A stretch of DNA of 64,000 nt, from NCBI GenBank assembly GCA_964416665.1, contig CAYQFA010000001.1, positions 40,082 through 104,081 of the forward strand, in the 5' to 3' direction. Below the pieces are notes generated by a model, which saw only the letters and a list, made by a program, of their open reading frames with translations, was not told the DNA's origin and did not search any database. Both the position numbers and the translations under genes were made by a program. Source of the stretch: an uncultured Candidatus Saccharibacteria bacterium. Lineage in GTDB: Bacteria; Patescibacteriota; Minisyncoccia; UBA6257; 2-01-FULL-56-20. Shown here one piece after another: positions 7,333-31,160 of the stretch (within the stretch, counting starts at the first letter, position 1; each line of letters begins with the position of its first letter).

Positions 7333-8826
7333 ATGAACACTGATACCGTTTTTGCCCATCCGGTGACCACCGCTGTCATCGCTGCGTTTCTCCTTGTCGG
7401 CATCGTCGGCAAGCTCATGAAGGTTTCCTTCGAAAGGATCGCGCAGTGGTACCTGTATATTTCGGCCTTTTCCGTTCTTGTGGTGATGAACTCAATATTC
7501 TTTCCCTTCATTGGCGGAAAGGATTATTTTTTCAGGTTCGCGATAGAATTGGCCCTGATCTGTGTGTTGCTGTGGTGGGGATTTGAGGCGAAGTCCGGAG
7601 ATCTTAAGCGCCGGCTGGCAATTATGTTTAAAAAGCCGCTTGTCATCGCGACGACCGTATTCGCGGTCGTGTTCGAGCTTGCGTGCCTTTTTGCCTACGA
7701 TATGCATGCGGCATTCTGGTCAAATTATGAGCGCGGGGAAGGCGGGTTCCAGATGCTTCACTACTATCTCTTTTTCCTGCTTTTGGTGTTCCTTTTCACC
7801 GAAGAAAAACAATGGAAAAATCTTTTCAATTTTTCTCTGGTTTCGGCCGGGCTCATGATTCTTTACGGCCTCGCCGGAAATTATTCGTTGAACGGCTTCA
7901 TTGGTCCGTATGCGGGGGGAACAGCGCCGACGAATTGGTGGCACGAACTGATCGACGGCAGATTCCAGGGAACGCTTGGCAACCCGGCGTACGTTGACCC
8001 CTATTTCATCTTCTCCATGTTTTATGTCGGTTATCTTTGGACATCGGCGAAGATCGCCGGAAAGTCCCTGAAAGTTTGGGGATGGGTCTACGCCGCGCTT
8101 ATCGCTATCTTCTCAATCTTCTTTGTTTTGGGGCAAACGCGTGGCGCTTTCCTGGGACTTGGAGCGGGCGTTCTTGCATTCCTTATCTATCTGATCTTTT
8201 CCTCAAGTCGCAAGGTCCAAAAGTGGTCATCGCTCGCGCTCGGCATCCTTATCATCCTTGGTATTGGCCTGTATGCGGTGCGGAACACTTCCTACGTGCA
8301 GAATTTGCCCGAGGGGAGGTTGTTACAGATCAGCCTTTCCGACACGACTGCCCAGACGCGTTTCTGGGTCTGGGGTGAGGCATGGAAAGGATTCCTTGAT
8401 AGGCCGATCCTCGGCTGGGGTCCCGAGAATTTCACCACGGTCTTTGATAAATATTTCAATCCGAACTTCTACATTCCCGGCCAAAATTCGGAAACGTGGT
8501 TCGATCGGGCGCATAGCATTTACTTCGATTATCTTGTCGAGACCGGCATCATCGGGTTGATCAGCTATTTGGCGATATTCGCGGTTTTCTACTGGAGCCT
8601 TGGCAAAAAAATATTGAAACACCGGAAGGCGTCGCACGAATCCCAGCCGGAAGTGCATCACAAGACGGCGCTCAATATCCAGATCGGCCTGTTGCTCGCG
8701 ATCCCGCTTGCGTATCTTGTCCAGGGTGTTGCAATATTCGACGTGTTCCCGATGTACATCTGCCTGTTCACCCTTTTTGCGTTCGGAACTTATTACACTA
8801 ATAACTATGGCAACCATGGAAGATAG
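7333..8826 (+). CDS. O-antigen ligase / Wzy_C family polytopic membrane protein (candidate polymerase or O-oligosaccharyltransferase)
   Basis: 497 aa, about 12 TM helices. Carries the Wzy_C signature loop RFWVWGEAWKGFLDRPILGWGPENF. Confidence 0.7.
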   Translation: MNTDTVFAHPVTTAVIAAFLLVGIVGKLMKVSFERIAQWYLYISAFSVLVVMNSIFFPFIGGKDYFFRFAIELALICVLLWWGFEAKSGDLKRRLAIMFKKPLVIATTVFAVVFELACLFAYDMHAAFWSNYERGEGGFQMLHYYLFFLLLVFLFTEEKQWKNLFNFSLVSAGLMILYGLAGNYSLNGFIGPYAGGTAPTNWWHELIDGRFQGTLGNPAYVDPYFIFSMFYVGYLWTSAKIAGKSLKVWGWVYAALIAIFSIFFVLGQTRGAFLGLGAGVLAFLIYLIFSSSRKVQKWSSLALGILIILGIGLYAVRNTSYVQNLPEGRLLQISLSDTTAQTRFWVWGEAWKGFLDRPILGWGPENFTTVFDKYFNPNFYIPGQNSETWFDRAHSIYFDYLVETGIIGLISYLAIFAVFYWSLGKKILKHRKASHESQPEVHHKTALNIQIGLLLAIPLAYLVQGVAIFDVFPMYICLFTLFAFGTYYTNNYGNHGR

Positions 8827-9463
8827 AACCTATCACAAAGTAGCGGCAATAGTCCTTTCGATCGCGATCCTCGGCGTCGCGCTTTACGGCTCGTACCTTC
8901 CGATGAGGAAAGCGCAGATGTTCATCGCCACGTTACAGAGCCTCCAGACCACTCCCGCGACATCATTGTCGGATCTTAAATCTCGCCTTTCTATACCGCT
9001 CGATTATCCTTCGCCGATCGGTCAGGAAGAACTCGTGCGCAACCTGGCGAACAGCGTCCTTTCATTCATACAGCAAGGCGCCGACCCCTCCTCGACCGCC
9101 CAGCTCATGAGTTTCTTGAACAGCTACTACAATCCGATTTTAAATACCGGCAAGGGCATGAGCTTTGGGCAGGATGTTTATCTTGAGGGCGCCATCAACG
9201 AGATAGCGTTTGCCGAGACCGGCGATCAGTCGTATCTTGCTGCCGCCAAGCAGTGGTATCTGGAGGCACGTCAACTCGGTCCCAATCGCCCACAGTCGCT
9301 TTATGGTCTGTTCGATGTTTATCGCGCCGCGAACGACGCGCCGGACACTATCGCGATAGGGGGGCAAATCATCGCCAATTGGCCGAGTGATGCCCGCATT
9401 CAGATGGCACTCCAGCAGTTTATGGCAGCTCAATCTTCGACAGCGACCTCGACGGGGAAGTAG
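8807..9463 (+). CDS. hypothetical membrane-anchored protein (N-terminal TM, helical/TPR-like C-terminal region)
   Basis: The ATG at 8807 (MATMEDRTYHK…) overlaps the end of the Wzy_C gene by 20 nt. The track ORF actually begins further upstream in the same frame. No recognisable catalytic motif. Confidence 0.4.
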   Translation: MATMEDRTYHKVAAIVLSIAILGVALYGSYLPMRKAQMFIATLQSLQTTPATSLSDLKSRLSIPLDYPSPIGQEELVRNLANSVLSFIQQGADPSSTAQLMSFLNSYYNPILNTGKGMSFGQDVYLEGAINEIAFAETGDQSYLAAAKQWYLEARQLGPNRPQSLYGLFDVYRAANDAPDTIAIGGQIIANWPSDARIQMALQQFMAAQSSTATSTGK

Positions 9464-9528
9464 GACGCGGCGATACAATAGAAATCGTAAAAAAGTACTT
9501 GCTCCCTGTGAGGATGGCGGTCGTCTTG

Positions 9529-9558
9529 TTGACTGGCACTGTCAATAAATTGTAATAT
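9529..9558 (+). promoter_or_regulatory. promoter heading the + strand glycan gene block (rfbF … hddC)
   Basis: TTGACT (9529-9534), ~18 nt, TAATAT (9553-9558). The -10 ends only 6 nt before the rfbF ATG, suggesting a leaderless transcript. Confidence 0.4.
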
Positions 9559-9564
9559 CATACC

Positions 9565-10347
9565 ATGAAAGTCGTGATTCTATGCGGTGGCTACGGTACG
9601 CGAATAAGGGACGTAGCCGATGATATCCCGAAGCCGATGATCCCGATCGGGGATCGGCCCATCGTGTGGCACATCATGAAGTATTATTCCACCTTCGGGC
9701 ATAATGATTTTGTTTTATGCCTTGGATATAAGAGTGAGGTGATCAAGAATTACTTCGTGAATTACGAAGCCCGGGCCAACGACATCCAGATAACGCTGGG
9801 AAAAGACAGTGGCGTCGGTTATGCCACGGCTCACGACGAAGCGGGTTGGAAGATCACAATGGCCGAAACGGGTTTGAACGCTCTGACCGGCGCCAGGATA
9901 AATCGGATCAAAAAATATATAGGAGACGATAAATATTTTATGCTGACCTACGGCGATGGCGTCGGCGATGTCGATATTGATGCTCTTTTGGCTTTCCATA
10001 AATCTCACGGTAAAATAGCGACCTTGACCGGAGTGCGGCCGCCGGGTCGTTTCGGTGAGCTTGAGATAGGCCCCAACAAGGAAGTTTTGGGGTTCAACGA
10101 GAAGCCGCAGGCGAGCGCCGGGCGGATCAATGGAGGTTTCTTTATTCTGAACACCGAGGTTTTCGATTATCTTTCCGACGACGAGAGATTGATGTTCGAG
10201 CAGGAACCGATCAAAAAATTGGTGGCTGACGGCCAGTTGATGGTCTTTGAGCACGATGGGTTTTGGCAGCCGATGGACACATCGAGGGATTATGCGCTGT
10301 TGAACGGTCTTTATAATGATAAAAAAGCGCCATGGATAAAGTGGTGA
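9565..10347 (+). CDS. rfbF: glucose-1-phosphate cytidylyltransferase
   Basis: 260 aa. Nucleotidyltransferase N-terminus MKVVILCGGYGTRIR and RfbF-like body (…YGDGVGDVDIDAL…). Confidence 0.8.
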   Translation: MKVVILCGGYGTRIRDVADDIPKPMIPIGDRPIVWHIMKYYSTFGHNDFVLCLGYKSEVIKNYFVNYEARANDIQITLGKDSGVGYATAHDEAGWKITMAETGLNALTGARINRIKKYIGDDKYFMLTYGDGVGDVDIDALLAFHKSHGKIATLTGVRPPGRFGELEIGPNKEVLGFNEKPQASAGRINGGFFILNTEVFDYLSDDERLMFEQEPIKKLVADGQLMVFEHDGFWQPMDTSRDYALLNGLYNDKKAPWIKW

Positions 10348-11456
10348 GCAGGAAAAAATTATTTGGGGGTGTTTACCAAGGGAAGAAGGTGCTTGTCACC
10401 GGGCACACGGGATTCAAGGGAAGCTGGCTGACGGCCTGGCTTCTGCAGCTTGGAGCGGACGTGTATGGGATATCGAACGGTATTCCAACCAAGCCGTCTC
10501 ACTTCGAGGAATTAGGGTTGAGAAAAAAAATCGTCCATTTCGAGGAGGATGTGCGCGATCTGGACGTCATGGTAAAGATCGTGAAGAAGGTCAAGCCTGA
10601 TTTTCTGTTCCACCTTGCGGCGCAACCCATCGTGTCTTTGTCATACACCGATCCGATAAAGACCGTCACCTCGAATGTCGTCGGAACCGCCAATATATTG
10701 GAGGCTTTGCGTTTGGCCGATCGAAAATGTGTCGCGGTCATCATCACGAGCGATAAATGCTACGACAACGTAGAACAGATCTGGGGGTACAAAGAAGGCG
10801 ATACTTTGGGAGGAAAAGATGTCTATAGCGGATCCAAGGGAGCTGCCGAGCTTATTTGCAAATCGTATTATCATTCATTTTTCAAGAACAATAGTCCCGT
10901 CCGCATGGCTACCGCGAGAGCGGGAAATGTCATAGGTGGCGGCGATTGGGCGGCTGACCGGATCGTGCCCGATTGCATGAGGGCATGGTCAAAAAATAAA
11001 ACTGTCGCGATCCGCAGCCCGAAGGCAACAAGGCCGTGGCAACATGTTTTGGAGCCGCTGAGCGGATATTTATTGTTGGGAGAAGCGTTGCTGGGCGACG
11101 CTTCATTGTCCGGTTCAAGCTTCAACTTCGGGCCGAGGTCCGATTATACGCAGACGGTGCAAACGGTTTTGGAAGATCTGAGCGCCTGCTGGCAGTTTTC
11201 TTCCCCGAAGGAAGCTTATGCGGTCGTCGATGGGACGAAGTTCCACGAGGCCGGACTGCTGAAACTGAATTGTGAAAAGGCGGCATACTATTTAAAATGG
11301 TCTCCCGTTCTTGATTATAAAACCTGTGTTGATTTTACCGGAAAATGGTACTTTTCTTTCTATAAGAAAAAAGAGGATATGATGGATTACACCCTGAACC
11401 AGATAAAAGAGTATGAGCGGCTGGCCGCCGCCATGAAACTGCCATGGACAAATTGA
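10332..11456 (+). CDS. rfbG: CDP-glucose 4,6-dehydratase
   Basis: 374 aa SDR-fold protein with VLVTGHTGFKGSWL and the catalytic YSGSKGAAE motif. Overlaps rfbF by 16 nt. Confidence 0.8.
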   Translation: MDKVVSRKKLFGGVYQGKKVLVTGHTGFKGSWLTAWLLQLGADVYGISNGIPTKPSHFEELGLRKKIVHFEEDVRDLDVMVKIVKKVKPDFLFHLAAQPIVSLSYTDPIKTVTSNVVGTANILEALRLADRKCVAVIITSDKCYDNVEQIWGYKEGDTLGGKDVYSGSKGAAELICKSYYHSFFKNNSPVRMATARAGNVIGGGDWAADRIVPDCMRAWSKNKTVAIRSPKATRPWQHVLEPLSGYLLLGEALLGDASLSGSSFNFGPRSDYTQTVQTVLEDLSACWQFSSPKEAYAVVDGTKFHEAGLLKLNCEKAAYYLKWSPVLDYKTCVDFTGKWYFSFYKKKEDMMDYTLNQIKEYERLAAAMKLPWTN

Positions 11457-11878
11457 TCTCGGGGGTCGTTCTTACTCCACTCAAGGTCATCGCCAATCCG
11501 CTTGGGGACGTGTACCACGGCATGAAAAAATCCGATCCCGGTTTCGCCGGCTTTGGAGAGGCTTATTTTTCCACCGTTAATAAAGGTGATATCAAATCTT
11601 GGAAAAAACATACTTCGATGACCTTGAACCTCGTCGTACCCGTCGGGGCGATTCGTTTTGTCGTTCATGATGACAGGGAGGGGAGCGAGACCAAAGGTTT
11701 ATTCAACGATTTCACGCTTTCTCTGGATAATTATCAACGGCTCACGGTGCCACCGGGAGTGTGGATGGCCTTTCAGGGCGTCGGTGAGAAAAATCTTTTA
11801 TTGAACGTTGCCAATTTGGAACACGTGCCGGAGGAGGGCGCCCGCGTCGAGCTCGGAACATTTCCTTATCGCTGGTAA
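11444..11878 (+). CDS. RmlC-like cupin sugar-nucleotide 3,5-epimerase/isomerase
   Basis: 144-aa cupin. Has the RmlC-family layout (…FGEAYFSTV…VPPGVWMAFQ…). Overlaps rfbG. Confidence 0.55.
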   Translation: MDKLISGVVLTPLKVIANPLGDVYHGMKKSDPGFAGFGEAYFSTVNKGDIKSWKKHTSMTLNLVVPVGAIRFVVHDDREGSETKGLFNDFTLSLDNYQRLTVPPGVWMAFQGVGEKNLLLNVANLEHVPEEGARVELGTFPYRW

Positions 11879-11879
11879 T

Positions 11880-12860
11880 ATGCGGATATTCATTACCGGG
11901 GCAAGCGGATATCTGGGAGCGCGGATCAGTAAGTTTTTCGCAGATAGGGGAGATCAGGTCTTTACGCTATGTTTTTCTGCGATTCCCGACGATCCGGAGT
12001 GGGTGAATGCCATGGAGGAGGTTCTTGTTGGCGATGTCCGCGATGAGAACTTAATGAAGGAGGTCGCCAACAAAAAGATGGACGCCATTATACACTTGGT
12101 GTCCCTGGACCAGAAACAATCCGGTGGGTTGCCGTCGTTCGTGTCATCCGTCAACGTGGCGCCGACATGGAGTTTGCTTGACGTCTTTTCCGGGCAGGGA
12201 CTCAAGCAATTCATCTATTTTTCCACCGTCCATGTCTACGGCAACCTCGACGCGTTGGGCGGCGAAACCATAACGGAGAGCAGGGAATTGGATTGCAAAA
12301 ATCCTTATGCCCTCACGCATGCGTTGGGCGAGGAGATCTGCGATTATTATGCTAAGACGTCGGACACGGCTTGCACGATTCTCAGACTATCGAACAGCTA
12401 TGGAAGTCCCGTGCTCCTGAACGCCAATTGTTGGCAACTCGTAGTGAACAATCTATGCAAGAGCGCTTTTGAAAAAAAGAAGATTGAATTGTCGGGGGAT
12501 GGTTCTTCGATGAGGGATTTCATCCACGGGGACGATGTTTGCCGGGCCGTCGAGGCCGTGATGGATCGGTCGGCCGTTCGTGCTCCCGCCGCGGATATCT
12601 TCAATGTCTCCTCCGGCACGGCCCTCACGGTATTGGAGCTCGCTGGGGTGGTACGAGAAGAATATCAAAGGCGTTACGGAGAGAACATTCCCGTATCAAC
12701 ATCAAACGGCGCTTGCGATAATTTTGATTTGTTCAAGGACAAAGCGAAGTACACTATTTCAAACACCGGTCTGAAAAATATAGGTTTTGTGCCAAAAAAC
12801 GACTTGAAAGACGGTATCAATGGCCTCTTTTCTTTCTTAGAGCTGAACAATAAAGCGTGA
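11880..12860 (+). CDS. NAD-dependent epimerase/dehydratase (SDR); likely 4-reductase/epimerase of the CDP-6-deoxyhexose branch
   Basis: ATG at 11880 directly after the upstream stop (MRIFITGASGYLGARI…). YxxxK-type SDR features are present. Confidence 0.6.
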   Translation: MRIFITGASGYLGARISKFFADRGDQVFTLCFSAIPDDPEWVNAMEEVLVGDVRDENLMKEVANKKMDAIIHLVSLDQKQSGGLPSFVSSVNVAPTWSLLDVFSGQGLKQFIYFSTVHVYGNLDALGGETITESRELDCKNPYALTHALGEEICDYYAKTSDTACTILRLSNSYGSPVLLNANCWQLVVNNLCKSAFEKKKIELSGDGSSMRDFIHGDDVCRAVEAVMDRSAVRAPAADIFNVSSGTALTVLELAGVVREEYQRRYGENIPVSTSNGACDNFDLFKDKAKYTISNTGLKNIGFVPKNDLKDGINGLFSFLELNNKA

Positions 12861-12872
12861 TACAATGTGGGG

Positions 12873-13781
12873 ATGGCTCGCAAAATAACCGTTCTTCTTA
12901 TGGGTGGGTTGGGCAATCAGATGTTCCAGTATGCGGCCGGTTTTAGCCTTGCAAAAAAGAACAACGCGCAGCTTTTCCTCGACACGACGCTTCTCAACGA
13001 CCGTTTTCCGCGGAAGGAATTTACCTTTCGCACACTGGATCTTGATATTTTTGGCATCGCGCCGAATTTTACGACGTTTTCGAAGGTCTCTCAAGCGATG
13101 CCGATTCCCGGCGTCTGGCTCGGCATAGATTATTCGTTGATAAAAGCGAGGGATGTTCTCGGGATCCAAAAAACGATAAAAGAGCGATCTCCCGTGTTCG
13201 ACCCCGATATTTTCAATATGGAAAGTAACGCTCTCTTGTTCGGATATTGGCAAAGCGAAAAATATTTTGAAAACGTAAAGGACGACCTTCGCGCCGTCTT
13301 CGATTTCAAGATCCCGCTTGCAGGCGTAGCAAAAGAAATCGCGGAAAAGATAAAAAGTACCAACTCAGTCGCACTTTTTGTGCGCCGCGGGGATTACGTT
13401 AACTTTGCGCGTGTGCGCGCGGAAATGGGCGATACCAACATAACGTACTATAAAAATGCCATTACTTACATCGCGGAACGCGTCAATAATCCCGCGTTCT
13501 TTATCTTTTCGAACGATATCGAGTGGTGCAGGGACAATTTGAAAATTCCTTTTCCTGCCATGTATATAGACAACGATCCGGCGAAGGTCGGCCCCAAGTT
13601 CTCTTATCAATTGCAGCACATGTCCCTTTGTAAGCACAATATCATCGCGAACAGCACGTTTCCCTGGTGGGGTGCGTGGTTGAATCCGAACCCACAGAAA
13701 ATAGTGATCGCGCCGCGCCAGTGGAACCTTCTTTTGCCGAGTGGGCAGGGTCCGGTACCTTCAGACTGGATAAAAATGTAG
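12873..13781 (+). CDS. glycosyltransferase family 11 (alpha-1,2-fucosyltransferase-like)
   Basis: GT11 motifs are present: N-terminal GGLGNQMFQYA and the HVRRGDY-type motif (LFVRRGDYVNF). The track start at 12867 is GTG; the first ATG is at 12873. Confidence 0.7.
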   Translation: MARKITVLLMGGLGNQMFQYAAGFSLAKKNNAQLFLDTTLLNDRFPRKEFTFRTLDLDIFGIAPNFTTFSKVSQAMPIPGVWLGIDYSLIKARDVLGIQKTIKERSPVFDPDIFNMESNALLFGYWQSEKYFENVKDDLRAVFDFKIPLAGVAKEIAEKIKSTNSVALFVRRGDYVNFARVRAEMGDTNITYYKNAITYIAERVNNPAFFIFSNDIEWCRDNLKIPFPAMYIDNDPAKVGPKFSYQLQHMSLCKHNIIANSTFPWWGAWLNPNPQKIVIAPRQWNLLLPSGQGPVPSDWIKM

Positions 13782-13786
13782 CATCC

Positions 13787-14815
13787 ATGAAGAAGTATTT
13801 TTATATTCTGAACCATCCTCTTTGTCCGACCCCGTATACCCACCGTTTTTTTGTCGAGAAATTCGCTTCGGGTTTCACCTACCATGGCTATGAGGTGAAG
13901 CTGATCTCGTCACCGCAGGAGATCGTGGGCCCGGGCGTGATGATGATCTACGATGCCGGATTTTATTTCTATTGGAACGATGGCATAAGGAATCTTCGTC
14001 GGGATTTTTTCATCATTGTCGACAGGGCTTTCAAAGCGCTGAAGTTAACGTGGTTCTCCGATCTCTGTTGGCATCTTCGCAAGAAGGCGATCATGCAATT
14101 TGCCCCGACGTTGAAAGAAAAGAATGTGGTATTGTTGGGATGGTTCTGGTTCTGGCAGAAGAAATTTTTCGACGACAACAGCATAAAGATCGTCTACACC
14201 GGTGAATACTTCTATCGAGAACCGGTTCACCGGCATCGTAAGGCGTGGTGGCATTTTTATACTGAGAATCGTGAGGGCCATGCGTTACCCATCCAGTTCG
14301 CCGCCGCGATGGATCCTCTCGTCGTAGGGTCGGATCCGGAAGCGAAAAGGGATATTATGGTATCATTCGTAGGGGAGCGAAAGTATAAGCCCGACTGGCA
14401 GGCCCTGTTCAATAAGCGGTCGGACTGTCGGATCGTGCCTACTCCTCCCTACATTCCCGAACTCGAGCGAATTGATATTTATAAGAGAAGTCTTGTTTCC
14501 TTAGGGCTTGAAGGATGTCCTCTTATAAGAGATGGGCTTGTGACGGAAAGGATTTTTGAGGCCTTGGCATACGGGGCCGTGTGCATTACCAACCATGATG
14601 AAGCCGTTGAAGCGACGAACGGCGCCGCGGTCTTTGCAAAGGATGCAAACGATGCGGAGGAGAAGGTGAAATATTTTTCCGCCGATAGGGCCGCAGCGAC
14701 GAGGCAGAGGGCGTTGGGATTTCGGTTTGTGAAAGAACAGGGGACATATGCTCATCAGGCAGGGAAATTCATTGCACTTATAGAAGGCGGTGTTCAGCAA
14801 AATTCTCATTTGTAA
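13787..14815 (+). CDS. putative glycosyltransferase (GT1/GT4-like C-terminal domain)
   Basis: ATG at 13787 (MKKYFYILNHP…) follows the upstream stop at 13781. The C-terminal region ERIFEALAYGAVCIT resembles the GT-B donor-binding fold. Confidence 0.4.
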   Translation: MKKYFYILNHPLCPTPYTHRFFVEKFASGFTYHGYEVKLISSPQEIVGPGVMMIYDAGFYFYWNDGIRNLRRDFFIIVDRAFKALKLTWFSDLCWHLRKKAIMQFAPTLKEKNVVLLGWFWFWQKKFFDDNSIKIVYTGEYFYREPVHRHRKAWWHFYTENREGHALPIQFAAAMDPLVVGSDPEAKRDIMVSFVGERKYKPDWQALFNKRSDCRIVPTPPYIPELERIDIYKRSLVSLGLEGCPLIRDGLVTERIFEALAYGAVCITNHDEAVEATNGAAVFAKDANDAEEKVKYFSADRAAATRQRALGFRFVKEQGTYAHQAGKFIALIEGGVQQNSHL

Positions 14816-14817
14816 CA

Positions 14818-15486: not shown

Positions 15487-15508
15487 AGATGGATAGAATT
15501 TCAACGCT

Positions 15509-20104: not shown

Positions 20105-20111
20105 AAAAACC

Positions 20112-23445: not shown

Positions 23446-23533
23446 CGCGGGCCTCCTTCTTTCTTTTCCGAAATCTCTCAGACCAAAATTTGTGAAGGTC
23501 TGGGCATATAATAACACATATCTAGCACTAAAG

Positions 23534-23796: not shown

Positions 23797-23817
23797 ATGG
23801 GGTTCTTATAAAAATCA

Positions 23818-24585
23818 ATGGAAAAGATTTTCAAGCAATTTCAAGGGTTGAGACAATACGGGTTGAAATACACCCCATTTATTCTTGCTCGCCTCGGCCT
23901 TAAAAGATCCGGCGAGATCACGGTAAAATTTTTCTGGGGTAAGACAGTGAAGCTGCCGTTCAACGCCGTAACGACGGAGCTGTATTATTTGCAAGCCGTG
24001 CCGGAGCCCAGGCTGATAGATTTCCTATCGAAGACATTAAAGGAAGGTGATGTCTTTTATGATATCGGAGCGAATTATGGCTTTTATTCTTTCCTCGCTA
24101 GTCATTTGCGCGCGAAGGTATTCCTCTTTGAACCTATAGCGGAAAATTGTAAGGCTATCAGAAAAAATATCTCTCCTGCGGAAGATATTTCCGTGAATGA
24201 GGTGGCCGTTGGGGAGGTTGCGAATGAACAGATCCCGTTTTATGAGGCGACGATACGAAATTCACAGAGTAGCGCCGACTCAAAGGCGGTCGAGGGAGTC
24301 AAAACCAGAAAGGTTTTGGCCAAAACGGAGTCCATTGATAACTTTGTGCTTACCCATCCAAAACCCACAGTTCTTAAAATAGATGTTGAAGGCTTTGAAG
24401 AGAAAGTCATAAAAGGGGGATCCACTTTTTTCCGCGATAACTTCCCCGTGATTATCATGGAGGCGTGGGGTGGAGAGAAGGGAGAACAATTTGCGCCGCC
24501 AGCGATAACATATCTCAATTCGCTCGGTTACAAAATTCGAGAGAATCTCGATGGCAACAATGTGTTCAGAAAAGTGAGCGCGTAA
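23818..24585 (+). CDS. FkbM-family SAM-dependent methyltransferase (second copy)
   Basis: FYDIGANYGFYS…LFEP…LKIDVEGFEE FkbM signature. Own -10-like TATAAA box 5 nt before the ATG. Confidence 0.65.
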   Translation: MEKIFKQFQGLRQYGLKYTPFILARLGLKRSGEITVKFFWGKTVKLPFNAVTTELYYLQAVPEPRLIDFLSKTLKEGDVFYDIGANYGFYSFLASHLRAKVFLFEPIAENCKAIRKNISPAEDISVNEVAVGEVANEQIPFYEATIRNSQSSADSKAVEGVKTRKVLAKTESIDNFVLTHPKPTVLKIDVEGFEEKVIKGGSTFFRDNFPVIIMEAWGGEKGEQFAPPAITYLNSLGYKIRENLDGNNVFRKVSA

Positions 24586-24591
24586 ATCGCT

Positions 24592-26067
24592 CTATCCAAC
24601 CAATGGGTTCTTCCGTGGGATCAAACTGAAAACCTCTTCCAAAAGAGGCTCTTTAAGGATTTTTAATATTAGGAAATAGATGACGCAGCTAATGGATATA
24701 TTGACGATGACGTTGATGTGGAGAAAAAGGAAAATCGTTGTGAAAATCCCCATAACAACGCTCGCGAGAGCTATGTTTTTAAGCCGTGTTATTACGGTGA
24801 ATCTATTTATTTTTTTCATAGCCCACCACAGGTAGCCGTTATTTACGGCCTGGGCGATGAGCGTGGCCACCGCCGAACCGGCGATGCCGAAGAACGGAAT
24901 CAGGGCAAGATCGAGGCCGACGTTCACTATGCCGCCGAGCGTGGAAGAAACAATGAGGCTCTTTTGGTGGTCATAGGCGAAGAGCGCGTTGATGATGATG
25001 GATGCGGGAAAGTCGAAGATGAGCGTCGCCGCGAGGATTTTGAAAGCGAGGCCTCCCGCTGCGTAGGGCGCGCCGAATACGAAGCCCATGATTTGCGTAC
25101 CAAGTACGACCCCGCCGATAGACAGCGGGAAGGAAGCAAGGAATACCATGCCGAGCGTGCGTTCGAAAGTGCTGCGAAATCGCTCGTTGTCGTGCTTCGC
25201 AAGGCGTGAAATGAGCGGGAGGGTGGCGAATTGTATGATGCTTGGTACAAGATAGAACATCTGGATGATGCGGATGGCTGCGGAATAGACGCCGACATCT
25301 GAGGCCGATCGCATCCAGCTGATGATGAGGATATCGCTGTTTGTAAAGAGCAGGCCGAGCGCGCCACTGATTGCAAATGGCCATGCTGCCCTAAGGATCG
25401 GCATGATACGCTCCGGCTCGAAACCCGAGAATATTTTTTTGAAGTAACCACGCAAGGCTATCACTGAAGCCGCAGTGCCGACGGCGTCGCCGGCAACATA
25501 ACCCCAACTGAATGCCTGTACGTTCGCTGCATAGGCGAGGAAGATGAAGCCGAACACGACGATGCCGAGGTTGGTGAGAAGGAACAACCCCGCCTCCCAC
25601 TCCATCTTTTCCATGGCGCGGAAGAGCGACAAAAAGAATTCACGCATAGTATCGAAAGCGAGCACAAGAGCGACAATAGGAATCAGAACCTTGGCTCCCG
25701 GGAGTGTGGTGAAAAGAGGGGCGACAAACAGGATGCCCATGACGCCGACGAGTAAAAGCACGATCTTTATCGCGAACATCGTCCCGAACATCGCGCGGCG
25801 TTCCTTTTCATCAACCTTCCCCGCATCGCGGATAAGGATGCCATTGATGCCAGGATCCATAAGAAGTGTGAGGAACCCGGCGAGTGTGATGACGTAGGAA
25901 AAGACGCCGTAGCCGTCGGTGCCCAAGATACGCGCGGCATAGATGATGATGACCGCCTTAATGAGTCGCCCGCCGAAATTCGACACCGAGAGCCAGAACG
26001 TATTTTTTACCACGGTCTGTTTGGCGCTTGTGTTCTTAAAAAGGAAGGCTTTTATTTTTTTGAACAT
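24592..26067 (-). CDS. wzx: oligosaccharide flippase (Wzx, MOP superfamily)
   Basis: About 12-14 TM helices with polysaccharide-biosynthesis-protein family character. ATG at 26067 (MFKKIKAFLF…); the track ORF starts at a GTG at 26130. Confidence 0.7.
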   Translation of the reverse strand: MFKKIKAFLFKNTSAKQTVVKNTFWLSVSNFGGRLIKAVIIIYAARILGTDGYGVFSYVITLAGFLTLLMDPGINGILIRDAGKVDEKERRAMFGTMFAIKIVLLLVGVMGILFVAPLFTTLPGAKVLIPIVALVLAFDTMREFFLSLFRAMEKMEWEAGLFLLTNLGIVVFGFIFLAYAANVQAFSWGYVAGDAVGTAASVIALRGYFKKIFSGFEPERIMPILRAAWPFAISGALGLLFTNSDILIISWMRSASDVGVYSAAIRIIQMFYLVPSIIQFATLPLISRLAKHDNERFRSTFERTLGMVFLASFPLSIGGVVLGTQIMGFVFGAPYAAGGLAFKILAATLIFDFPASIIINALFAYDHQKSLIVSSTLGGIVNVGLDLALIPFFGIAGSAVATLIAQAVNNGYLWWAMKKINRFTVITRLKNIALASVVMGIFTTIFLFLHINVIVNISISCVIYFLILKILKEPLLEEVFSLIPRKNPLVG

Positions 26068-26123
26068 TGAGGTTATACTTGACTCATACAGGATAGCCGA
26101 AAAAACGGCTTCCGTAAATTGAT

Positions 26124-26627
26124 ATGACACCCAAAAAGAAATTGGCGAGGCGCGTTAAAAAAGATCCCAAAAAAGTCGTGGTTGCGGTCTCCGGCGGATT
26201 CGATCCGATCCACATCGGCCATGTGCGGATGTTCGAGCGGGCCAGATCGCTCGGCGATGAGCTGGTCGTGATTTTGAATAATGACAATTGGCTCAAAAAG
26301 AAAAAAGGGTATGTGTTCATGCCGGAGCGGGAGCGGAAGGAGGTGATCGAAGGGCTCCGCGCGGTGGACCGTGTGGTCGTCACCAAGCATAAGCCGGACG
26401 ACAACGATGTAAGTGTGTGCCGTGAACTTCGCGCGATCAAGCCCGACGTCTTCGCTAATGGCGGCGACAGGAAATTCGATAATACCCCCGAGGTCGCCGT
26501 CTGTGATGCCATTGGATGCGCGATGGTGTTCAATGTCGGCAAGGGCGGGAAGATACAATCCAGTTCATGGCTGCTGAAGAACCACGCCAATCACATTGCC
26601 GGAAAGAGCGGAAAGAAAGCGCAGTGA
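26124..26627 (+). CDS. cytidylyl/adenylyl-transferase-like nucleotidyltransferase (RfaE domain II / TagD-like HxGH fold)
   Basis: VVAVSGGFDPIHIGHVRMFERARSLGDELVVILNND…ERKEVIEGLRAVDRVV matches the (H/T)xGH cytidylyltransferase core of the HldE C-terminal domain. Confidence 0.55.
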   Translation: MTPKKKLARRVKKDPKKVVVAVSGGFDPIHIGHVRMFERARSLGDELVVILNNDNWLKKKKGYVFMPERERKEVIEGLRAVDRVVVTKHKPDDNDVSVCRELRAIKPDVFANGGDRKFDNTPEVAVCDAIGCAMVFNVGKGGKIQSSSWLLKNHANHIAGKSGKKAQ

Positions 26628-26636
26628 TAGAACGGG

Positions 26637-27563
26637 TCAGACTTTAATCGTCTCAAGCGTTTTCCGGATACCTTCCCTCAATTTTATCGTCGGCGTCCAC
26701 CCAAGAACTTTTTTCGCCTTGCCTGCCTTGATGGATATCTGATAGACCTCTCCTTTTCGATACGCCGCAAAGACGGGTTTTTCGGGATAGCCGGTGCTTG
26801 CGGCAATCTCATCGAATATCATCCTATCGGTGACCGTCTTGCCCCAGCCGAGGTTGACGATATCATTACGGCCCTTCTTGAGCGCAAGGACGTTCGCGTG
26901 CACCACATCGTGGACGAAGGTGTAATCGCGTGCTTTCGTACCATCGCCAAAAATGGTGGGCCGTTTTCCGGATTTCATGAGGCCGCCAAAGATGGCGACC
27001 ACGCCGGCCTCGCCTTTCGGATTTTGGCGTGGGCCATAGACGTTCGGATAACGGAAAATGAGGTAGGTAAAGCCGTACTGGCGGGCGTAGAAGGTGATCA
27101 CTTCCTCGCCGAGCAGTTTGGAAAGTCCATAGGGGGAAAGCGGGGCTGCGGTGGTGGATTCGTCGGCGGGGATCTTTTTGGGTTCGCCATAGATCGCGCC
27201 GCCCGTGGAAGAGAATATGAATTTCCTGTTCTTTCCCTTCCCGTGATGTCCGAATGCGAGCAGTACGTTCGTTGTACCGAGCACATTCACCTGGAGGGTC
27301 GGTATGGGGTCGCGCAGCGATTTGACCACTTCCGCGATTGCCGCATGGTGGTTCACGACCTCAGGCCTTTCCTTTTTGAATATCCTTTCCATCGCCGCCG
27401 CATCGCGGATATCGGCTTTGTAGAACGTCGCTTTCGGGTTGACGTTCTTTCTGAACCCGGTGGAAAGGTCGTCAATGACCGCCACGCGATGACCGGCTTT
27501 TATATAAGCGTCAACGATGTGCGACGCGATGAACCCCGCTCCGCCCGTAACGATGATTTTCAT
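26637..27563 (-). CDS. UDP-glucose 4-epimerase family NAD-dependent epimerase
   Basis: MKIIVTGGAGFIASHIVD…YGLSKLLGE (YxxxK) SDR epimerase motifs. Confidence 0.7.
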   Translation of the reverse strand: MKIIVTGGAGFIASHIVDAYIKAGHRVAVIDDLSTGFRKNVNPKATFYKADIRDAAAMERIFKKERPEVVNHHAAIAEVVKSLRDPIPTLQVNVLGTTNVLLAFGHHGKGKNRKFIFSSTGGAIYGEPKKIPADESTTAAPLSPYGLSKLLGEEVITFYARQYGFTYLIFRYPNVYGPRQNPKGEAGVVAIFGGLMKSGKRPTIFGDGTKARDYTFVHDVVHANVLALKKGRNDIVNLGWGKTVTDRMIFDEIAASTGYPEKPVFAAYRKGEVYQISIKAGKAKKVLGWTPTIKLREGIRKTLETIKV

Positions 27564-27614
27564 AGTGCCTTTATTATAGCAAAAAGCCGGATCATGTGAA
27601 TCCAGAGCCTCCTG

Positions 27615-28952
27615 CTACTCTGGATTCACAAAGAGCGACTTGATCGTCTTGAGAATGATGGCCCAATCCAAAATCGGCGAGCGGTTCTTGAGGTAGTAGA
27701 TATCGTATTGCAGTTTTTCCACGACGTCGGCATCGGTGAGATCGGCGCGATGATGGATCTGCGCCCACCCCGTGATCCCGGGCTTGATAAAGAGCCGCGC
27801 TTCATAATAGGGGATCCGCTCCTCGAGCTTTGCCACGAACTCAGGCCGTTCCGGTCGTGGGCCGACAAAAGAAAGGTCACCGCGGATGATATTCCAAAGC
27901 TGTGGTAATTCGTCGAGGTGGGATTTGCGGAGGAACCCGCCGATGGGCGTCGTGCGTCGATCGTTCTTTGCCGCCCATTGCGCACCGTCCTTTTCCGCGT
28001 CCACGCGCATGGTGCGGAATTTATAGAACATGAACTCTTTCCCTTTCTCGCCGACGCGGACCTGTTTGTAAATGATGGGGCCGCGCGAGGTGAGCCTTAC
28101 GAGCAGGGCGATGATGATCTCGATAGGGATGAGAACGATGCCAAGCACGAGCGCCTCGATCAGCTCTGATGCCCTTTTAAGGGGATCATAAAAACGCGTG
28201 TCTCTGGCTATGTTCTCCAGGAACCAGGTCTCTTTGATCTCGGTAAGCGGGACCTTTCGCATGATAAGTTCATAGAGGCTTGTCATATCGGTTACGAGGA
28301 CGCCGCCGCCAAAGAGCTCGTAAAGCACGGCGACCAGTTTCGGCTCCTGCTTGAGATGGCTGGAAATGACGATGAGATTGATATGCTCACGCCGCGCGAT
28401 CGTTTTTATTTCCTCCGGCGTCGCGTACGCGGTCTTCTCTTCCACGTCTGCTTTGATGGCGTAGCCAAGCTGGGGATTCTCGGTGATGGTCTTTTTTATT
28501 TCTGCCGCGATCGTCCCGTCGCCGATGATGAGGGTTCGGTTGGGCGCTTCGCCGAACGCCATGGCGCGGTTCAAGGATCGGCGCCAAAATATTTCAATGA
28601 TCGTAAAAATGACGGCGAACAGCAGGAGGTTGGTCTTTGGCGCGATGCCGAACGCGGGAATGAGGTAGAAGAGTGATATCGCGAGGGCGGTATTCACTCC
28701 GATGCACAAGAAGAGCGTTTTGATGAAGTCCAGATTATTGCGAAGGCGACGCAGATCATAGAGTCCTGCGATATAGAAAACGGCGATCCATAGGACGAAG
28801 ATGGCGGTAAAGGGGAGCGCGTGCGCATCGCGGAATTGTGCGTAAAATCCGGAACCGTATCTGATGATAAGCGTGAGGAAGAGCGCCGCATAGAGTGCGA
28901 CGGCGTCTGCAATGACGAACAAAAAAGCCTTTAATTTATGGACGGCATCCAT
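27615..28952 (-). CDS. polyprenyl-phosphate hexose-1-phosphate transferase (WbaP/WcaJ-like initiating sugar transferase, Bac_transf)
   Basis: N-terminal TM block, then a C-terminal Bac_transf domain: DELPQLWNIIRGDLSFVGPRPERPEF…PGITGWAQI. Confidence 0.75.
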   Translation of the reverse strand: MDAVHKLKAFLFVIADAVALYAALFLTLIIRYGSGFYAQFRDAHALPFTAIFVLWIAVFYIAGLYDLRRLRNNLDFIKTLFLCIGVNTALAISLFYLIPAFGIAPKTNLLLFAVIFTIIEIFWRRSLNRAMAFGEAPNRTLIIGDGTIAAEIKKTITENPQLGYAIKADVEEKTAYATPEEIKTIARREHINLIVISSHLKQEPKLVAVLYELFGGGVLVTDMTSLYELIMRKVPLTEIKETWFLENIARDTRFYDPLKRASELIEALVLGIVLIPIEIIIALLVRLTSRGPIIYKQVRVGEKGKEFMFYKFRTMRVDAEKDGAQWAAKNDRRTTPIGGFLRKSHLDELPQLWNIIRGDLSFVGPRPERPEFVAKLEERIPYYEARLFIKPGITGWAQIHHRADLTDADVVEKLQYDIYYLKNRSPILDWAIILKTIKSLFVNPE

Positions 28953-28964
28953 GGCATCCTTGTT

Positions 28965-29843
28965 TTACCACGTTTTGACGAAATAGGCGATGGTCGCGGC
29001 GAGCAGGAAAAAACAAACAAGGGCGCCTGCCGCGATGGCGAATTCCCTGGTTTTGCTCTCCGGTTTGCAGATGCCGCTCTGGCCATCCGCGAAGCGCACT
29101 TCCGTTGACACCGTGGTGAACGGCCGGTTGAAGAGCGTGATCCAAAAATAATTGAGCGTATAACGTACCCCCATGGTAAAAACACCCTCCTTCGCGATCC
29201 TTCGCCCCGACGAGCGCAGGGAAAACCGGAATGAGAAGACCACCTTTCCGATCTTATTGAGCCGCTTTGCAAGATCGGCATCATCGCCGTAAAACTTGAG
29301 ATCGACGTTGTGTCCGCCGATTTTGCGCAGGGCCGATGAGCGCACCACCGCACCGCCGCCTTGGATCGCTGATGTGGTATGGAGGATGAACCGGTTTGTG
29401 AAGTAAACCAGCCAGGAGAGACAATCAAAGGTTCTTGTGAGGATGCGCATCGCGACGGGTAGGTCATAAAAAACGAACGGACCGCTCACGCAGACCAGTT
29501 TCGGGTCGAGTGCAAATTCCCCCTCGACTCGCGCGATCCAGTCGGGGACGACTTCGGTATCGGAGTCGAGAAAAGCGACGAGGTCGCCATGCGAAGCCTC
29601 GAAACCGGTCTCCCGCGCGCGATTTGCGCCGCGCCGCGGCTCGCGGAGGAGCGTTACGTGATGGTATCTTCCGACGACTGCCGCGGTGCCGTCCGTAGAG
29701 TTGTTGTCCACTACGATGACCTCGTAGTTGGCATCCTTGCCTATCGCATAATCCGGTCCGCCGATTGCGGCAGTGATCATATCAAGACAATGAGCGATAT
29801 AATGCTCTTCGTTGTACGCGGGGATGATAAAGCTGAGTTTCAT
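28965..29843 (-). CDS. glycosyltransferase family 2 (with C-terminal TM helix)
   Basis: LSFIIPAYNEE…VIVVDNNSTDGT…LDSDT. Start ATG at 29843 (ATGA overlap) or 29858. Confidence 0.7.
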   Translation of the reverse strand: MKLSFIIPAYNEEHYIAHCLDMITAAIGGPDYAIGKDANYEVIVVDNNSTDGTAAVVGRYHHVTLLREPRRGANRARETGFEASHGDLVAFLDSDTEVVPDWIARVEGEFALDPKLVCVSGPFVFYDLPVAMRILTRTFDCLSWLVYFTNRFILHTTSAIQGGGAVVRSSALRKIGGHNVDLKFYGDDADLAKRLNKIGKVVFSFRFSLRSSGRRIAKEGVFTMGVRYTLNYFWITLFNRPFTTVSTEVRFADGQSGICKPESKTREFAIAAGALVCFFLLAATIAYFVKTW

Positions 29844-30559
29844 CGTATTTGTTTCCATTCACTGCTGTACGACCGGTGAAAGTGTTTTACGTAAAAATTA
29901 TTCAGGAACCATTGGAGCCAGAGCCGGGGCCAGCCGATCTGGTGGGCGCGACGGCCGGTATGGTATACCGTGAGCCGCCATTCCATCAGCGTCCTCCCGA
30001 TGGTCGCAAGCCGCACGAACATATCCTCATCTTCCGCCGCCGCGAGATTTTCCTGGAAGCCGTGCAGTTTTTCGAATGCGTCGCGTCGGATCATTTCGAT
30101 CTCGCCGGAAGCGCTTCCCACGTGGCGCGTATTGTTCCGCCGTCGATGACGGAGGTTCGTAAGGCCGAACACAATATTATCGAGCCACGTCGCGTCTTCG
30201 GGGAAGACATTGAGTTGCGTGGTGACGCCGACAAGATTTGGGTCGGCAGCAAAGTCATCGACGACGATCTTGAAAAAATGGTTGGGATCGGGAACGAATA
30301 CGTCGGCATCGATGAAGATGAGAAAATCTCCCCGCGCCGCCGCCGCGCCCTGATTCCGATTCCAGCCGATCGTATGGTGCCTTTTGGTGATGATCACTCT
30401 CGCGTAGGCGCGGGCGATCTCGGCGGTCCGGTCGTCGCTTTCACTATCGGCGACGATAAGTTCGTAGGGGTATGCCGTGAGATTGTCGTGGATCTGCTTG
30501 AGTGTTTTCTCGATGGCGAGCTCTTCGTTCAGCGTGGGGACAACAATGGAGAGTAGCAT
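29840..30559 (-). CDS. glycosyltransferase family 2
   Basis: ATG at 30559 (MLLSIVVPTLNEE) lies 7 nt downstream of the dedA stop. LIVADSESDDRT…IDADV motifs. The longer track ORF starts at a TTG inside dedA. Confidence 0.65.
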   Translation of the reverse strand: MLLSIVVPTLNEELAIEKTLKQIHDNLTAYPYELIVADSESDDRTAEIARAYARVIITKRHHTIGWNRNQGAAAARGDFLIFIDADVFVPDPNHFFKIVVDDFAADPNLVGVTTQLNVFPEDATWLDNIVFGLTNLRHRRRNNTRHVGSASGEIEMIRRDAFEKLHGFQENLAAAEDEDMFVRLATIGRTLMEWRLTVYHTGRRAHQIGWPRLWLQWFLNNFYVKHFHRSYSSEWKQIR

Positions 30560-30566
30560 GGTATTC

Positions 30567-31160
30567 CTAGAGTTTAGCATTAAATCGGGTGCGCATAAAC
30601 TTCCCAAAGCCGAAAAGGCCGAACGCGGCAACGACGATAAGGGAGATAACAAATGCCCATCGCAGGCTTTTGTCCACCCAGGTGTAGAAATTGCCGAGGA
30701 AGAAACCGGCGGCGAGCAGTATTCCCGTCCAGATGAACTGGCCGAATAGGTTTATGGTGAAATACTTTTTGAACGGGACTTTCGCCATACCGGCGGCGAC
30801 GAGCGTCGCGAGCGCGAAGCCGAGTCCCATGGTGATTTTTGAGATAAAAAGGATCTTTATCTGGTGGTCCTTAAAAAACCCTTCGGCACGTTCGACGTTC
30901 CCTTCGGTAAGATTGACGAAGCGTCCATACTTTTCGATGAGCGGCCGTCCGCCGTTCCGTCCGACGAAATACCAGAAAACGTCTCCCGTGAGGTCGCCGG
31001 CCATCAGAATGAGATAGATCGGCCAAAAACTGAAAAAGCCGATCCGGATCAGGAAGCCGGAAAGCAGCATCACAAGCGGCCCTTCGACGATGGCAAGCGG
31101 AAAGGCGATCGGGTAGCGGAACGTGAGCAGCCAGGACACCAGTGGGATGTTCAGAAACAT
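30567..31160 (-). CDS. DedA / VTT-domain family membrane protein
   Basis: 197-aa polytopic protein with the DedA-like core …GRNGGRPLIEKYGRF… and an extended -10 (TACTATAAT) 7 nt upstream of the ATG. Confidence 0.6.
   Translation of the reverse strand: MFLNIPLVSWLLTFRYPIAFPLAIVEGPLVMLLSGFLIRIGFFSFWPIYLILMAGDLTGDVFWYFVGRNGGRPLIEKYGRFVNLTEGNVERAEGFFKDHQIKILFISKITMGLGFALATLVAAGMAKVPFKKYFTINLFGQFIWTGILLAAGFFLGNFYTWVDKSLRWAFVISLIVVAAFGLFGFGKFMRTRFNAKL

Follow-up and report, generated by a model that had tools for sequence, protein, structure and literature searches.

What does an O-antigen-ligase-type enzyme do in a bacterium that is unlikely to have an outer membrane? The question is raised by a 64,000-nucleotide stretch of contig CAYQFA010000001.1 (hereafter the window), from an uncultured bacterium labelled Candidatus Saccharibacteria, in which a 24-kb locus (positions 7333–31160) combines a Wzy_C-family membrane protein (7333–8826, plus strand) with the enzymes of a lipid-linked glycan pathway. 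A first-pass annotation, made from the DNA letters alone, had proposed that the Wzy_C protein acts either as a PglL-like protein O-oligosaccharyltransferase (O-OTase) or as a polymerase. Our analysis favors the O-OTase side of that proposal, on the strength of the coupling of Wzy_C to a tetratricopeptide repeat (TPR)-like protein, the fusion of the two modules in distant relatives, the uncoupling of Wzy_C from the surrounding glycan genes, and the neighbors of the fused genes. We give roughly even odds (about 0.5) to the reading that the locus encodes a system for Wzx-dependent protein O-glycosylation en bloc, its glycan genes forming a hypervariable island.

A Wzy_C-family protein in a monoderm lineage

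A search with the Wzy_C protein against one genome per species returned 29 loci at 45–76% identity. All of them come from metagenome-assembled genomes of Patescibacteria, for which candidate phyla radiation (CPR) is another name, under the labels Paceibacterota, Parcubacteria, Minisyncoccia or 'Saccharibacteria', and the closed chromosomes among these related genomes measure 0.83–0.90 Mb. NCBI taxonomy places 'Candidatus Paceibacterota' in the phylum Minisyncoccota, kingdom Bacillati. Patescibacteria have been called 'a phylum of monoderm bacteria' (PMC11665869), and the type species Minisyncoccus archaeiphilus was described as Gram-positive (PMC12281837). The single-membrane envelope previously proposed from gene content is thus borne out by taxonomy as well. 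Because the relatives all fall within this monoderm, Gram-positive phylum, a lipid A-core acceptor is very unlikely in the host organism, which upholds the earlier exclusion of WaaL-type ligation to lipid A; WaaL proper was likewise rejected as a candidate function, there being no lipopolysaccharide (LPS) context. We listed the open reading frames (ORFs) of the window and scanned about 55 of them with Pfam and NCBIfam hidden Markov models (HMMs). These scans gave no match to LPS (Lpx, Kdo), Lpt, Bam, Wzz/polysaccharide co-polymerase (PCP), LCP or ABC-exporter families, in agreement with the earlier remark that lipid A, Lpt and outer-membrane genes are not seen. The housekeeping genes cited in favor of a single membrane, encoding RNase Y (5772–7298), RNase J (1–1461, minus strand), a DedA protein and a peptidoglycan (PG)-binding surface protein, are all present.

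The Wzy_C protein itself (497 aa) has at least 12 hydrophobic or transmembrane (TM) segments and matches PF04932 over residues 256–413 (76.4 bits against a cut-off of 31.7; E = 2.7e-21), a domain present in all 120 homologues among the matches listed. The HMM subgroup assignment that had been suggested as a check therefore succeeded at the level of the Wzy_C superfamily, and failed below it, as no subfamily model scored above its cut-off. Sub-threshold NCBIfam matches were to TIGR03097 (PEP_O_lig_1, exosortase-associated putative O-glycosylation ligase; 52.3 against 188.1 bits) and TIGR00947 (IctB; 50.4 against 366.4 bits). An AlphaFold2 (AF2) model built with 32 homologues (pLDDT 77, pTM 0.84) had a single significant Foldseek match in the PDB, namely WaaL (7tpg_B; E = 5e-5, TM-scores 0.53/0.63, 16% identity), the next match lying at E = 0.9; the protein is thus predicted to adopt a WaaL-like multi-TM fold.

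Conservation among the 32 homologues is concentrated in two loops. Arg210, Arg270, Arg329, Asp337, Arg343, His394 and Glu403 are invariant, as is the triplet T269-R270-G271. The first invariant loop reads R210-F211...L215-G216-N217-x-A219-Y220, and the second comprises R329, D337, R343, W345, G361-W362-G363 and W389-F390-D391-x-A393-H394-S395 (the DRAHS motif). As four helices separate them, these loops should both face one side of the membrane. In general character the invariant Arg and His residues resemble hallmarks of the Wzy_C family and may have a catalytic or undecaprenyl-pyrophosphate-binding role. Separately, the Wzy_C homologues in five loci (L008, L019, L023, L026 and L029, at approximately 10001–11650) are 545–559 aa long, compared with about 485–497 aa elsewhere, corresponding to an insertion of roughly 55–60 residues.

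A TPR-like partner coupled or fused to Wzy_C

The gene immediately downstream (8816–9463, plus strand), which the first-pass annotation had overlooked, begins 11 nt before the end of the Wzy_C stop codon, an overlap indicating that the two are translationally coupled. Its 215-aa product consists of a short N-terminus, one TM helix that serves as an anchor, and about 185 residues of helices. The best PDB sequence match of this all-helical domain was a designed TPR protein (7obi, E = 4.6e-5), and Pfam TPR_14 or TPR_19 is found in 9 of 30 homologues (best E of about 1.5e-5). The AF2 model is all-helical, and every Foldseek match to it was a TPR protein, at E ≥ 0.006. It is these family, PDB and Foldseek matches that suggest a TPR fold for the partner encoded in the window. 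We detected 492 members of the partner family, whose named sources are Paceibacterota or Pacebacteria and whose listed members are stand-alone proteins of roughly 200–230 aa. A partner homologue (45–72% identity) follows Wzy_C in 28 of the 29 loci, that is, in every locus that reaches past Wzy_C.

Two distant Patescibacteria loci, L091 and L100, encode Wzy_C homologues (30% identity) of 734 and 751 aa in which a TPR domain is fused to the enzyme. Both have the same layout, with the Wzy_C core followed by a charged linker, one extra TM helix and, at the C-terminus, a TPR domain (TPR_2 at E = 2.8e-14 in L091; in L100 only a marginal TPR_19 match, E = 0.0064), and a third, truncated copy of the fused protein occurs in locus L065. 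We regard this Rosetta-stone fusion as the most informative evidence for an association of Wzy_C with TPR modules. If the topology is like that of WaaL, so that three more helices follow the catalytic loop and the C-terminus is cytoplasmic, the additional helix would carry the fused TPR domain outside the membrane; by analogy, the TPR domain would be extracytoplasmic, on the side of the catalytic loop, in fusion and partner alike.

The combination of a Wzy_C enzyme with a TPR module, split in the window and fused in L091 and L100, is that of the PglL/PilO/WsaB type of O-OTase. WsaB of Geobacillus stearothermophilus and WsfB of Paenibacillus alvei, predicted O-OTases for S-layer proteins, share the Wzy_C domain with PilO and PglL, and a TPR motif is present at the C-terminus of both WsfB and PglL (PMC2943079). 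WsaB has no such motif, although the neighboring gene encodes WsaA, a TPR protein of 168 aa; both systems are initiated by WbaP-like enzymes, WsaP and WsfP (PMC2943079). To judge from this analogy, the window pair and its fused relatives reproduce both architectures reported for protein O-OTases, monoderm ones included.

Wzy_C lies in a conserved flank beside a hypervariable island

We compared the window proteins with the 29 loci by tblastn and at the level of ORFs. Wherever the contig reaches far enough, the same block recurs: SBP_bac_5 and iPGM genes on the minus strand, then RNase Y, Wzy_C and the 215-aa partner on the plus strand. Mean pairwise identity is 0.79 for RNase Y and 0.63 for both Wzy_C and the partner, and the pairwise identity of Wzy_C follows that of RNase Y (Spearman 0.68) and of the partner (0.76). 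For gene content further downstream, we counted a gene as shared if a homologue with 50% identity or more and at least 70% coverage stood within 10 kb downstream, across 28 loci. By this measure, the median fraction of downstream genes common to two loci is 0, and Wzy_C identity bears no relation to shared content (rho 0.06, p = 0.6); one pair of loci has Wzy_C proteins that are 93% identical and not a single downstream gene in common. These comparisons indicate that Wzy_C is vertically inherited and uncoupled from the variable glycan genes. A polymerase gene would be expected to be specific to its cluster and to vary with it, whereas Wzy_C stands fixed outside the variable block and tracks RNase Y. 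Moreover, the variable regions of the relatives yielded hardly any Wzz/PCP or LCP protein or additional polymerase-like membrane protein.

Most cluster genes of the window had no counterpart in the other loci. The exceptions were the GT11 glycosyltransferase gene, with counterparts in 6 of the 28, and the GT2 gene at 18142, two heptose genes, Wzx, the GalE-like gene and a flanking DsbA-like gene, each with counterparts in one or two. Within the block at 12867–19029, GT11 (6 loci) and the GT2 gene at 18142–19029 (one locus) alone had a homologue of at least 50% identity. GC content falls to 0.46–0.50 at 12–18 kb, against 0.53–0.55 in the flanks, which is consistent with exchange or a horizontal origin. 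In locus L011 (11337–14265), a dihydroorotate dehydrogenase gene directly succeeds the Wzy_C-TPR pair, a DsbA-like gene comes next, and the glycan island is missing from the site; in the window, the DsbA-like gene sits beyond that of DedA. It follows that the cluster of about 21.6 kb fills a variable slot bounded by conserved flanks.

The island is not uniformly variable. A metagenome scan with the WbaP-like protein returned 80 loci, and we counted neighbors in the 42 of at least 9 kb. A Wzx gene stands beside the WbaP homologue in 29 of these 42, TrxB in 19, a GalE-like gene in 17, the GT2 of the type at 28965 in 16 and that of the type at 18142 in 14. The nucleotidyltransferase at 21272 follows with 10 loci, the DsbA-like gene with 8 and the heptose genes with 6 each; genes of the 9565–17352 block occur there in none or one. 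The order of the right arm at 26637–30652 (GalE-like, WbaP-like, two GT2) is kept in related metagenome loci, and DedA is syntenic in three of them (L031, L043 and L046). By this comparison the right arm is semi-conserved and the left-central block hypervariable, and the genes of the right arm may make an inner portion that the glycans have in common. In L091, L100 and L065 as well, no more than 1–4 kb separates Wzy_C(-TPR) from WbaP-Wzx.

The locus encodes a complete lipid-linked glycan pathway

The earlier description of the locus as a complete undecaprenyl-phosphate glycan pathway stands, in that an initiator, glycosyltransferases, methyltransferases, sugar modules and Wzx are all encoded within 7333–31160. 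Chain initiation is assigned to the WbaP-like polyprenyl-phosphate hexose-1-phosphate transferase (27615–28952, minus strand), which has five TM segments, matches Bac_transf (PF02397) at E = 9.4e-65 and scores above the TIGR03025 cut-off (369.1 against 295.55 bits), confirming its previous identification. The Wzx/MOP-family flippase (24592–26130, minus strand) has at least nine TM segments and matches Polysacc_synt at E = 1.5e-40. At the right end lies a DedA/VTT-domain membrane protein (30567–31160, minus strand; VTT_dom, E = 2.4e-14). The locus encodes no multi-TM proteins other than Wzx, WbaP, Wzy_C and DedA, and its only Wzy/WaaL-family member is Wzy_C.

Two sugar modules are encoded on the plus strand, and only the first retains the sugar identity given to it before. 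The CDP-6-deoxyhexose module (9565–12860) comprises CDP-glucose synthase (glucose-1-phosphate cytidylyltransferase; 9565–10347; TIGR02623, 319.8 bits against a cut-off of 300), CDP-glucose 4,6-dehydratase (10332–11456; TIGR02622, 472.6 against 278 bits), a weakly matched RmlC-like cupin (11444–11878) and a short-chain dehydrogenase/reductase (SDR) epimerase/reductase found by Pfam (11808–12860), both TIGR equivalogs scoring above their cut-offs. The second module (19088–22015) consists, by Pfam, of a GHMP kinase, a SIS isomerase, a HAD phosphatase and a nucleotidyltransferase. Its best NCBIfam matches are HddA, GmhA and GmhB, all below the equivalog cut-offs; the module is thus NDP-heptose-like, and the GDP-heptose previously named is a plausible product. 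Pfam also supports a GalE-like epimerase (26637–27563, minus strand), which, like Wzx and Wzy_C, had been listed before.

Seven glycosyltransferases matched Pfam families, in line with the earlier count of at least seven. Five are on the plus strand, namely a GT11 enzyme (12867–13781), a GT1-like enzyme (13667–14815), a GT4 enzyme (16282–17352) and a central GT2 pair (17312–18220 and 18142–19029); the right-arm GT2 pair (28965–29858 and 29840–30652) is on the minus strand. Of the three methyltransferases previously listed, the two FkbM enzymes (14818–15486 and 23818–24585, both plus strand) are confirmed by Pfam, and the third (15509–16285, plus strand) is a SAM-methyltransferase-like gene with a weak match (Methyltransf_23, E = 0.023). 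Besides the TPR-like partner, the first-pass annotation had passed over three genes: an AAA_33 kinase (22067–22636, minus strand) and an IMPase-like phosphatase (22630–23517, minus strand), both found by Pfam, and a cytidylyltransferase-like protein related to RfaE domain II or TagD (26124–26627, plus strand; CTP_transf_like, E = 1.9e-15; TIGR02199, 79 bits, below its cut-off). Among alternative routes of export, an ABC-transporter-dependent pathway was rejected, since there is no Wzm/Wzt, and so was a synthase-dependent one, since no processive synthase gene was recognized. Promoter and terminator scans of the window gave counts at background.

Candidate acceptor proteins

The giant secreted protein with a poly-Thr/Gly linker that had been put forward as an acceptor was recovered as described (52206–56036, plus strand). 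It is 1276 aa long, with a signal peptide, a coiled coil and a PG_binding_1 domain, and carries the run NGTTTTTTTTTTTGGTTTTTTTGTGTT at about residues 141–167, followed by a long Ser/Thr/Asn-rich, beta-rich region. All of its homologues in other Patescibacteria have a Thr/Gly/Ser/Pro-rich linker of variable sequence after the PG-binding domain. From this composition, the Thr-rich protein is a plausible glycan acceptor.

Other candidates come from the surroundings of the fused genes. In L100 (4356–9947, minus strand), the fused Wzy_C-TPR gene is flanked by genes for a type IV pilin-like protein, an FkbM methyltransferase and a GT9 heptosyltransferase; the pilin-like neighbor, of 348 aa, has the prepilin motif FTLIELL (N_methyl, E = 6.7e-7). 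In L091 (3771–7966, minus strand), a protein with two PG_binding_1 domains is encoded two genes 3' of the fusion, and its linker is a poly-Gly/Pro/Thr stretch, GGGG...TTPPPPPVTPPPPPPASQPPPPS. These neighbors, one observation each, are only suggestive. A pilin motif scan of the window found no pilin gene.

A model of en-bloc O-glycosylation and its rivals

We infer the donor and acceptor, the chemistry of transfer and the roles of the TPR partner and DedA as follows. At the cytoplasmic face of the membrane, the WbaP-like transferase would place a hexose-1-phosphate onto undecaprenyl phosphate, and as many as seven glycosyltransferases, together with two or three methyltransferases, would extend the chain, supplied with locally made CDP-6-deoxyhexose, an NDP-heptose-like sugar and UDP-Gal/Glc. 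Wzx would flip the finished undecaprenyl-pyrophosphate (undecaprenyl-PP)-oligosaccharide, and Wzy_C, with its WaaL/PglL fold, would attach the glycan in one piece to Ser/Thr (or Tyr) residues where secreted proteins are of low complexity. The membrane-anchored extracytoplasmic TPR partner would recruit the acceptor, which may be the PG-anchored Thr-rich surface protein, pilins, or both. DedA may help to recycle the lipid carrier; DedA and UptA proteins are polyprenyl-phosphate transporters, which is the basis for proposing a role in undecaprenyl-phosphate recycling. The transferase pair would thus form a conserved core machinery with relaxed glycan specificity, a property indirectly supported by the rho of 0.06 and by the pair of loci with 93%-identical Wzy_C. 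In the proposed view, the product of the locus is a functional analogue of O-antigen for a single-membrane cell.

Several observations weigh against this model. Neither a single sequence nor a 32-sequence profile of Wzy_C found a relative among the solved structures of the PDB, 7TPG included, and hhalign of the family profile to Escherichia coli K-12 WaaL gave a probability of 0.7% and no alignment. The PglL_A domain (PF15864) was not detected in Wzy_C, the only Pfam family at E ≤ 0.01 being Wzy_C itself, and the putative catalytic residues are deduced solely from their invariance. The window's own partner has no Pfam TPR match, and its model is of low confidence (pLDDT 63.5). The partner-family HMM did not match the fused TPR domains of L091 and L100, for which blastp gave a weak hit only (E = 0.015); the link between partner and fused domain is architectural rather than proven homology. 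The gene for the Thr-rich protein is 21 kb from the locus, and each acceptor named here is a candidate. Three loci (L011, L012 and L015, of which L011 alone reaches as far as the conserved DsbA flank) have the pair with no recognizable adjacent glycan island. Finally, if the semi-conserved right arm makes a conserved backbone, a conserved polymerase could join its units.

The last point leads to the first rival, in which Wzy_C is a Wzy-type polymerase making a cell-wall or capsule-like polysaccharide that another enzyme, such as an LCP protein encoded elsewhere, attaches to peptidoglycan, and the TPR-like partner would be a co-polymerase or chain-length factor. The Pfam Wzy_C family includes many polymerases, a Wzx flippase with a WbaP-like initiator is the classic layout of Wzy-dependent loci, and a one-TM partner with a helical ectodomain could in principle regulate polymerization. 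Even a position outside the variable cluster has a precedent, as Salmonella groups A, B and D1 have a common rfc/wzy gene outside the rfb cluster. Nonetheless, we consider this rival unlikely. Wzy_C identity is uncoupled from the glycan genes and the gene lies outside the variable region; the 64-kb window has no Wzz/PCP or LCP gene and, by Pfam, no tyrosine kinase gene; and what the partner and the fused domains show is TPR repeats rather than a coiled coil with a pair of TM helices, as in Wzz. The eight transferases would build a long single unit, which we take to be more typical of en-bloc glycans, and the association with TPR domains has been reported for O-OTases (PglL, WsfB, WsaA/WsaB; PMC2943079) and not for polymerases.

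Two further rivals leave protein glycosylation aside. Wzy_C-TPR might ligate an undecaprenyl-PP-glycan onto a membrane glycolipid or peptidoglycan, as an LCP-independent analogue of WaaL. This would suit the fact that its sole structural match is a lipid-directed ligase, its WaaL-like combination of conservation with independence from the glycan, the absence of an LCP gene from the window, and the retention of the pair where no island adjoins it, which suggests a core envelope role. Yet no candidate lipid-anchor or core-oligosaccharide genes were seen in the window, the neighbors of the fusions are secreted proteins (pilin-like and PG-binding), and such a ligase has no precedent known to us in monoderms. 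TPR modules, moreover, usually bind proteins or peptides, and those found in Wzy_C enzymes are reported for protein O-OTases (PMC2943079). On balance this reading seems quite improbable to us, and its fuller form, in which Wzy_C-TPR is no O-OTase at all but a WaaL-like enzyme attaching strain-variable glycans to a non-LPS acceptor (glycolipid or peptidoglycan), we regard with still greater doubt; if true, it would mean LCP-independent display of an O-antigen-like polymer on a single-membrane, ultrasmall bacterium. The adjacency could, alternatively, be incidental, Wzy_C-TPR serving an unrelated core process while the island inserts at a recombination-prone site and its product is finished elsewhere. 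The three loci that have the pair and no recognizable neighboring island fit this idea, as does the inheritance of the pair together with RNase Y and iPGM. To our knowledge, however, every characterized Wzy_C-family enzyme acts on undecaprenyl-PP-linked glycans, and no other enzyme of the island could consume the flipped intermediate. Because the distant loci L091, L100 and L065 repeat the placement of Wzy_C(-TPR) near WbaP-Wzx, an incidental adjacency is very unlikely.

Comparison with known systems

Among the closest known counterparts of the proposed O-glycosylation system are the S-layer protein glycosylation (slg) clusters of two Gram-positive Bacillales, G. stearothermophilus NRS 2004/3a and P. 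alvei (PMC2943079). Shared features are a monoderm host, a WbaP-like initiating transferase of the Gal-1-P type with five TM helices, the grouping of nucleotide-sugar genes, glycosyltransferases and an O-methyltransferase in one cluster, and a Wzy_C-domain predicted O-OTase with its TPR module either fused (WsfB) or provided by a small adjacent protein (WsaA-WsaB). Heptose-containing S-layer glycans are known from this group, and the window has a heptose-like module. The likeness to WsaB and WsfB is one of described architecture, not of compared sequences, and there are differences. G. stearothermophilus builds its polymer on the lipid and exports it through the Wzm/Wzt ABC transporter, whereas the window has Wzx and no ABC transporter; wsaA lies upstream of wsaB, whereas the TPR gene of the window lies downstream and encodes a membrane-anchored protein; no S-layer gene is adjacent in the window; and the host is a CPR bacterium of about 0.9 Mb in which the cluster's site is fixed and its content hypervariable.

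PglL of Neisseria and PilO/TfpO of Pseudomonas are Wzy_C enzymes of the GT-C type that transfer flipped undecaprenyl-PP-glycans en bloc to Ser/Thr in low-complexity regions or to pilins, with relaxed glycan specificity, as we propose for the window pair; pilA stands beside pilO, much as a pilin-like gene stands beside the L100 fusion. Those hosts are diderm, however, and the window has neither a PglL_A domain nor, unlike pilO, an adjacent pilin gene. Unlike PglL, with its C-terminal TPR motif (PMC2943079), the window has its TPR module in a separate protein. With WaaL (cryo-EM structure 7TPG), the modeled enzyme would share a multi-TM GT-C fold, a large extracytoplasmic loop preceding the final three helices and invariant Arg/His residues in loops, as well as conservation of the enzyme while the glycan cluster varies. 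It differs in having no detectable sequence similarity to E. coli WaaL and no expected lipid A-core acceptor, and WaaL has no TPR partner. The locus as a whole is laid out like the Wzx/Wzy loci for O-antigen or capsule, with conserved flanks, a low-GC hypervariable center, a fixed site, WbaP and Wzx. It departs from them in lacking a Wzz/PCP, an LCP or a cluster-specific variable Wzy, its single Wzy_C being TPR-associated and placed in the conserved flank.

Implications for Patescibacteria

Patescibacteria have genomes of less than 1 Mb and live attached to host cells. At about 2.7–2.9% of a 0.83–0.90 Mb genome, a 24-kb locus is a large investment. A conserved enzyme pair beside a hypervariable island at a fixed site is the pattern expected under diversifying selection of a surface structure, for which host recognition and the evasion of phages or predators are possible drivers, and we propose that the island gives rise to strain- or species-specific surface glycans. 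Every component is homologous to parts of known systems; the advance is one of taxonomic scope and locus architecture, not of mechanism. A full-text literature search found no work linking O-antigen-ligase or Wzy_C genes to CPR/Patescibacteria, the combinations of O-antigen with Parcubacteria and of oligosaccharyltransferase with Patescibacteria returned irrelevant matches only, and a search for LCP proteins or teichoic acids in Patescibacteria gave nothing useful. A study of Saccharibacteria pili explicitly calls glycosylation in the group unexplored. The locus offers a concrete, testable enzyme pair with candidate acceptors (the PG-binding Thr-rich protein and pilins) and possibly a promiscuous O-OTase for glyco-engineering.

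Other features of the window

The RNase J gene runs off the start of the window; it encodes the RNase_J_b_CASP domain (E = 3.7e-44) and the metallo-beta-lactamase HxHxDH motif. Three plus-strand ORFs opposite it (2–364, 520–1065 and 1031–1432) were discarded as shadow ORFs, their apparent tblastn conservation being due to the conserved RNase J on the other strand. Rfam reported only two tRNAs in the window (57184–57256 and 57411–57483), both also called by ARAGORN, which in addition placed an 85-nt tRNA-Leu(CAG) at 1639–1723 (minus strand) that Rfam did not report at its gathering threshold. Between recA and ftsK, a minus-strand gene (38654–39415) combines HTH_25, as in the N-terminus of RodZ, with a Glucodextran_B-like domain. 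A 247-aa protein with about eight predicted TM segments and no Pfam match (49386–50129, plus strand) is encoded between ClpB (46707–49382) and a GalU-like nucleotidyltransferase (50139–50945). Near the right end, a 578-aa ORF (61040–62776, plus strand), which overlaps the end of a dCTP deaminase gene (60495–61088), contains two stretches matching ThyX (Thy1) and has roughly double the length normal for ThyX; a tandem-domain ThyX and a mis-set start are both possible explanations. Finally, sugar-precursor genes are scattered over the window, encoding iPGM (4116–5651, minus strand), PGM/PMM (41657–43474, minus strand), the GalU-like enzyme (plus strand) and GlmS (58536–60404, minus strand); the organism therefore supplies itself with hexose-phosphate and UDP-sugar precursors, its reduced genome notwithstanding.

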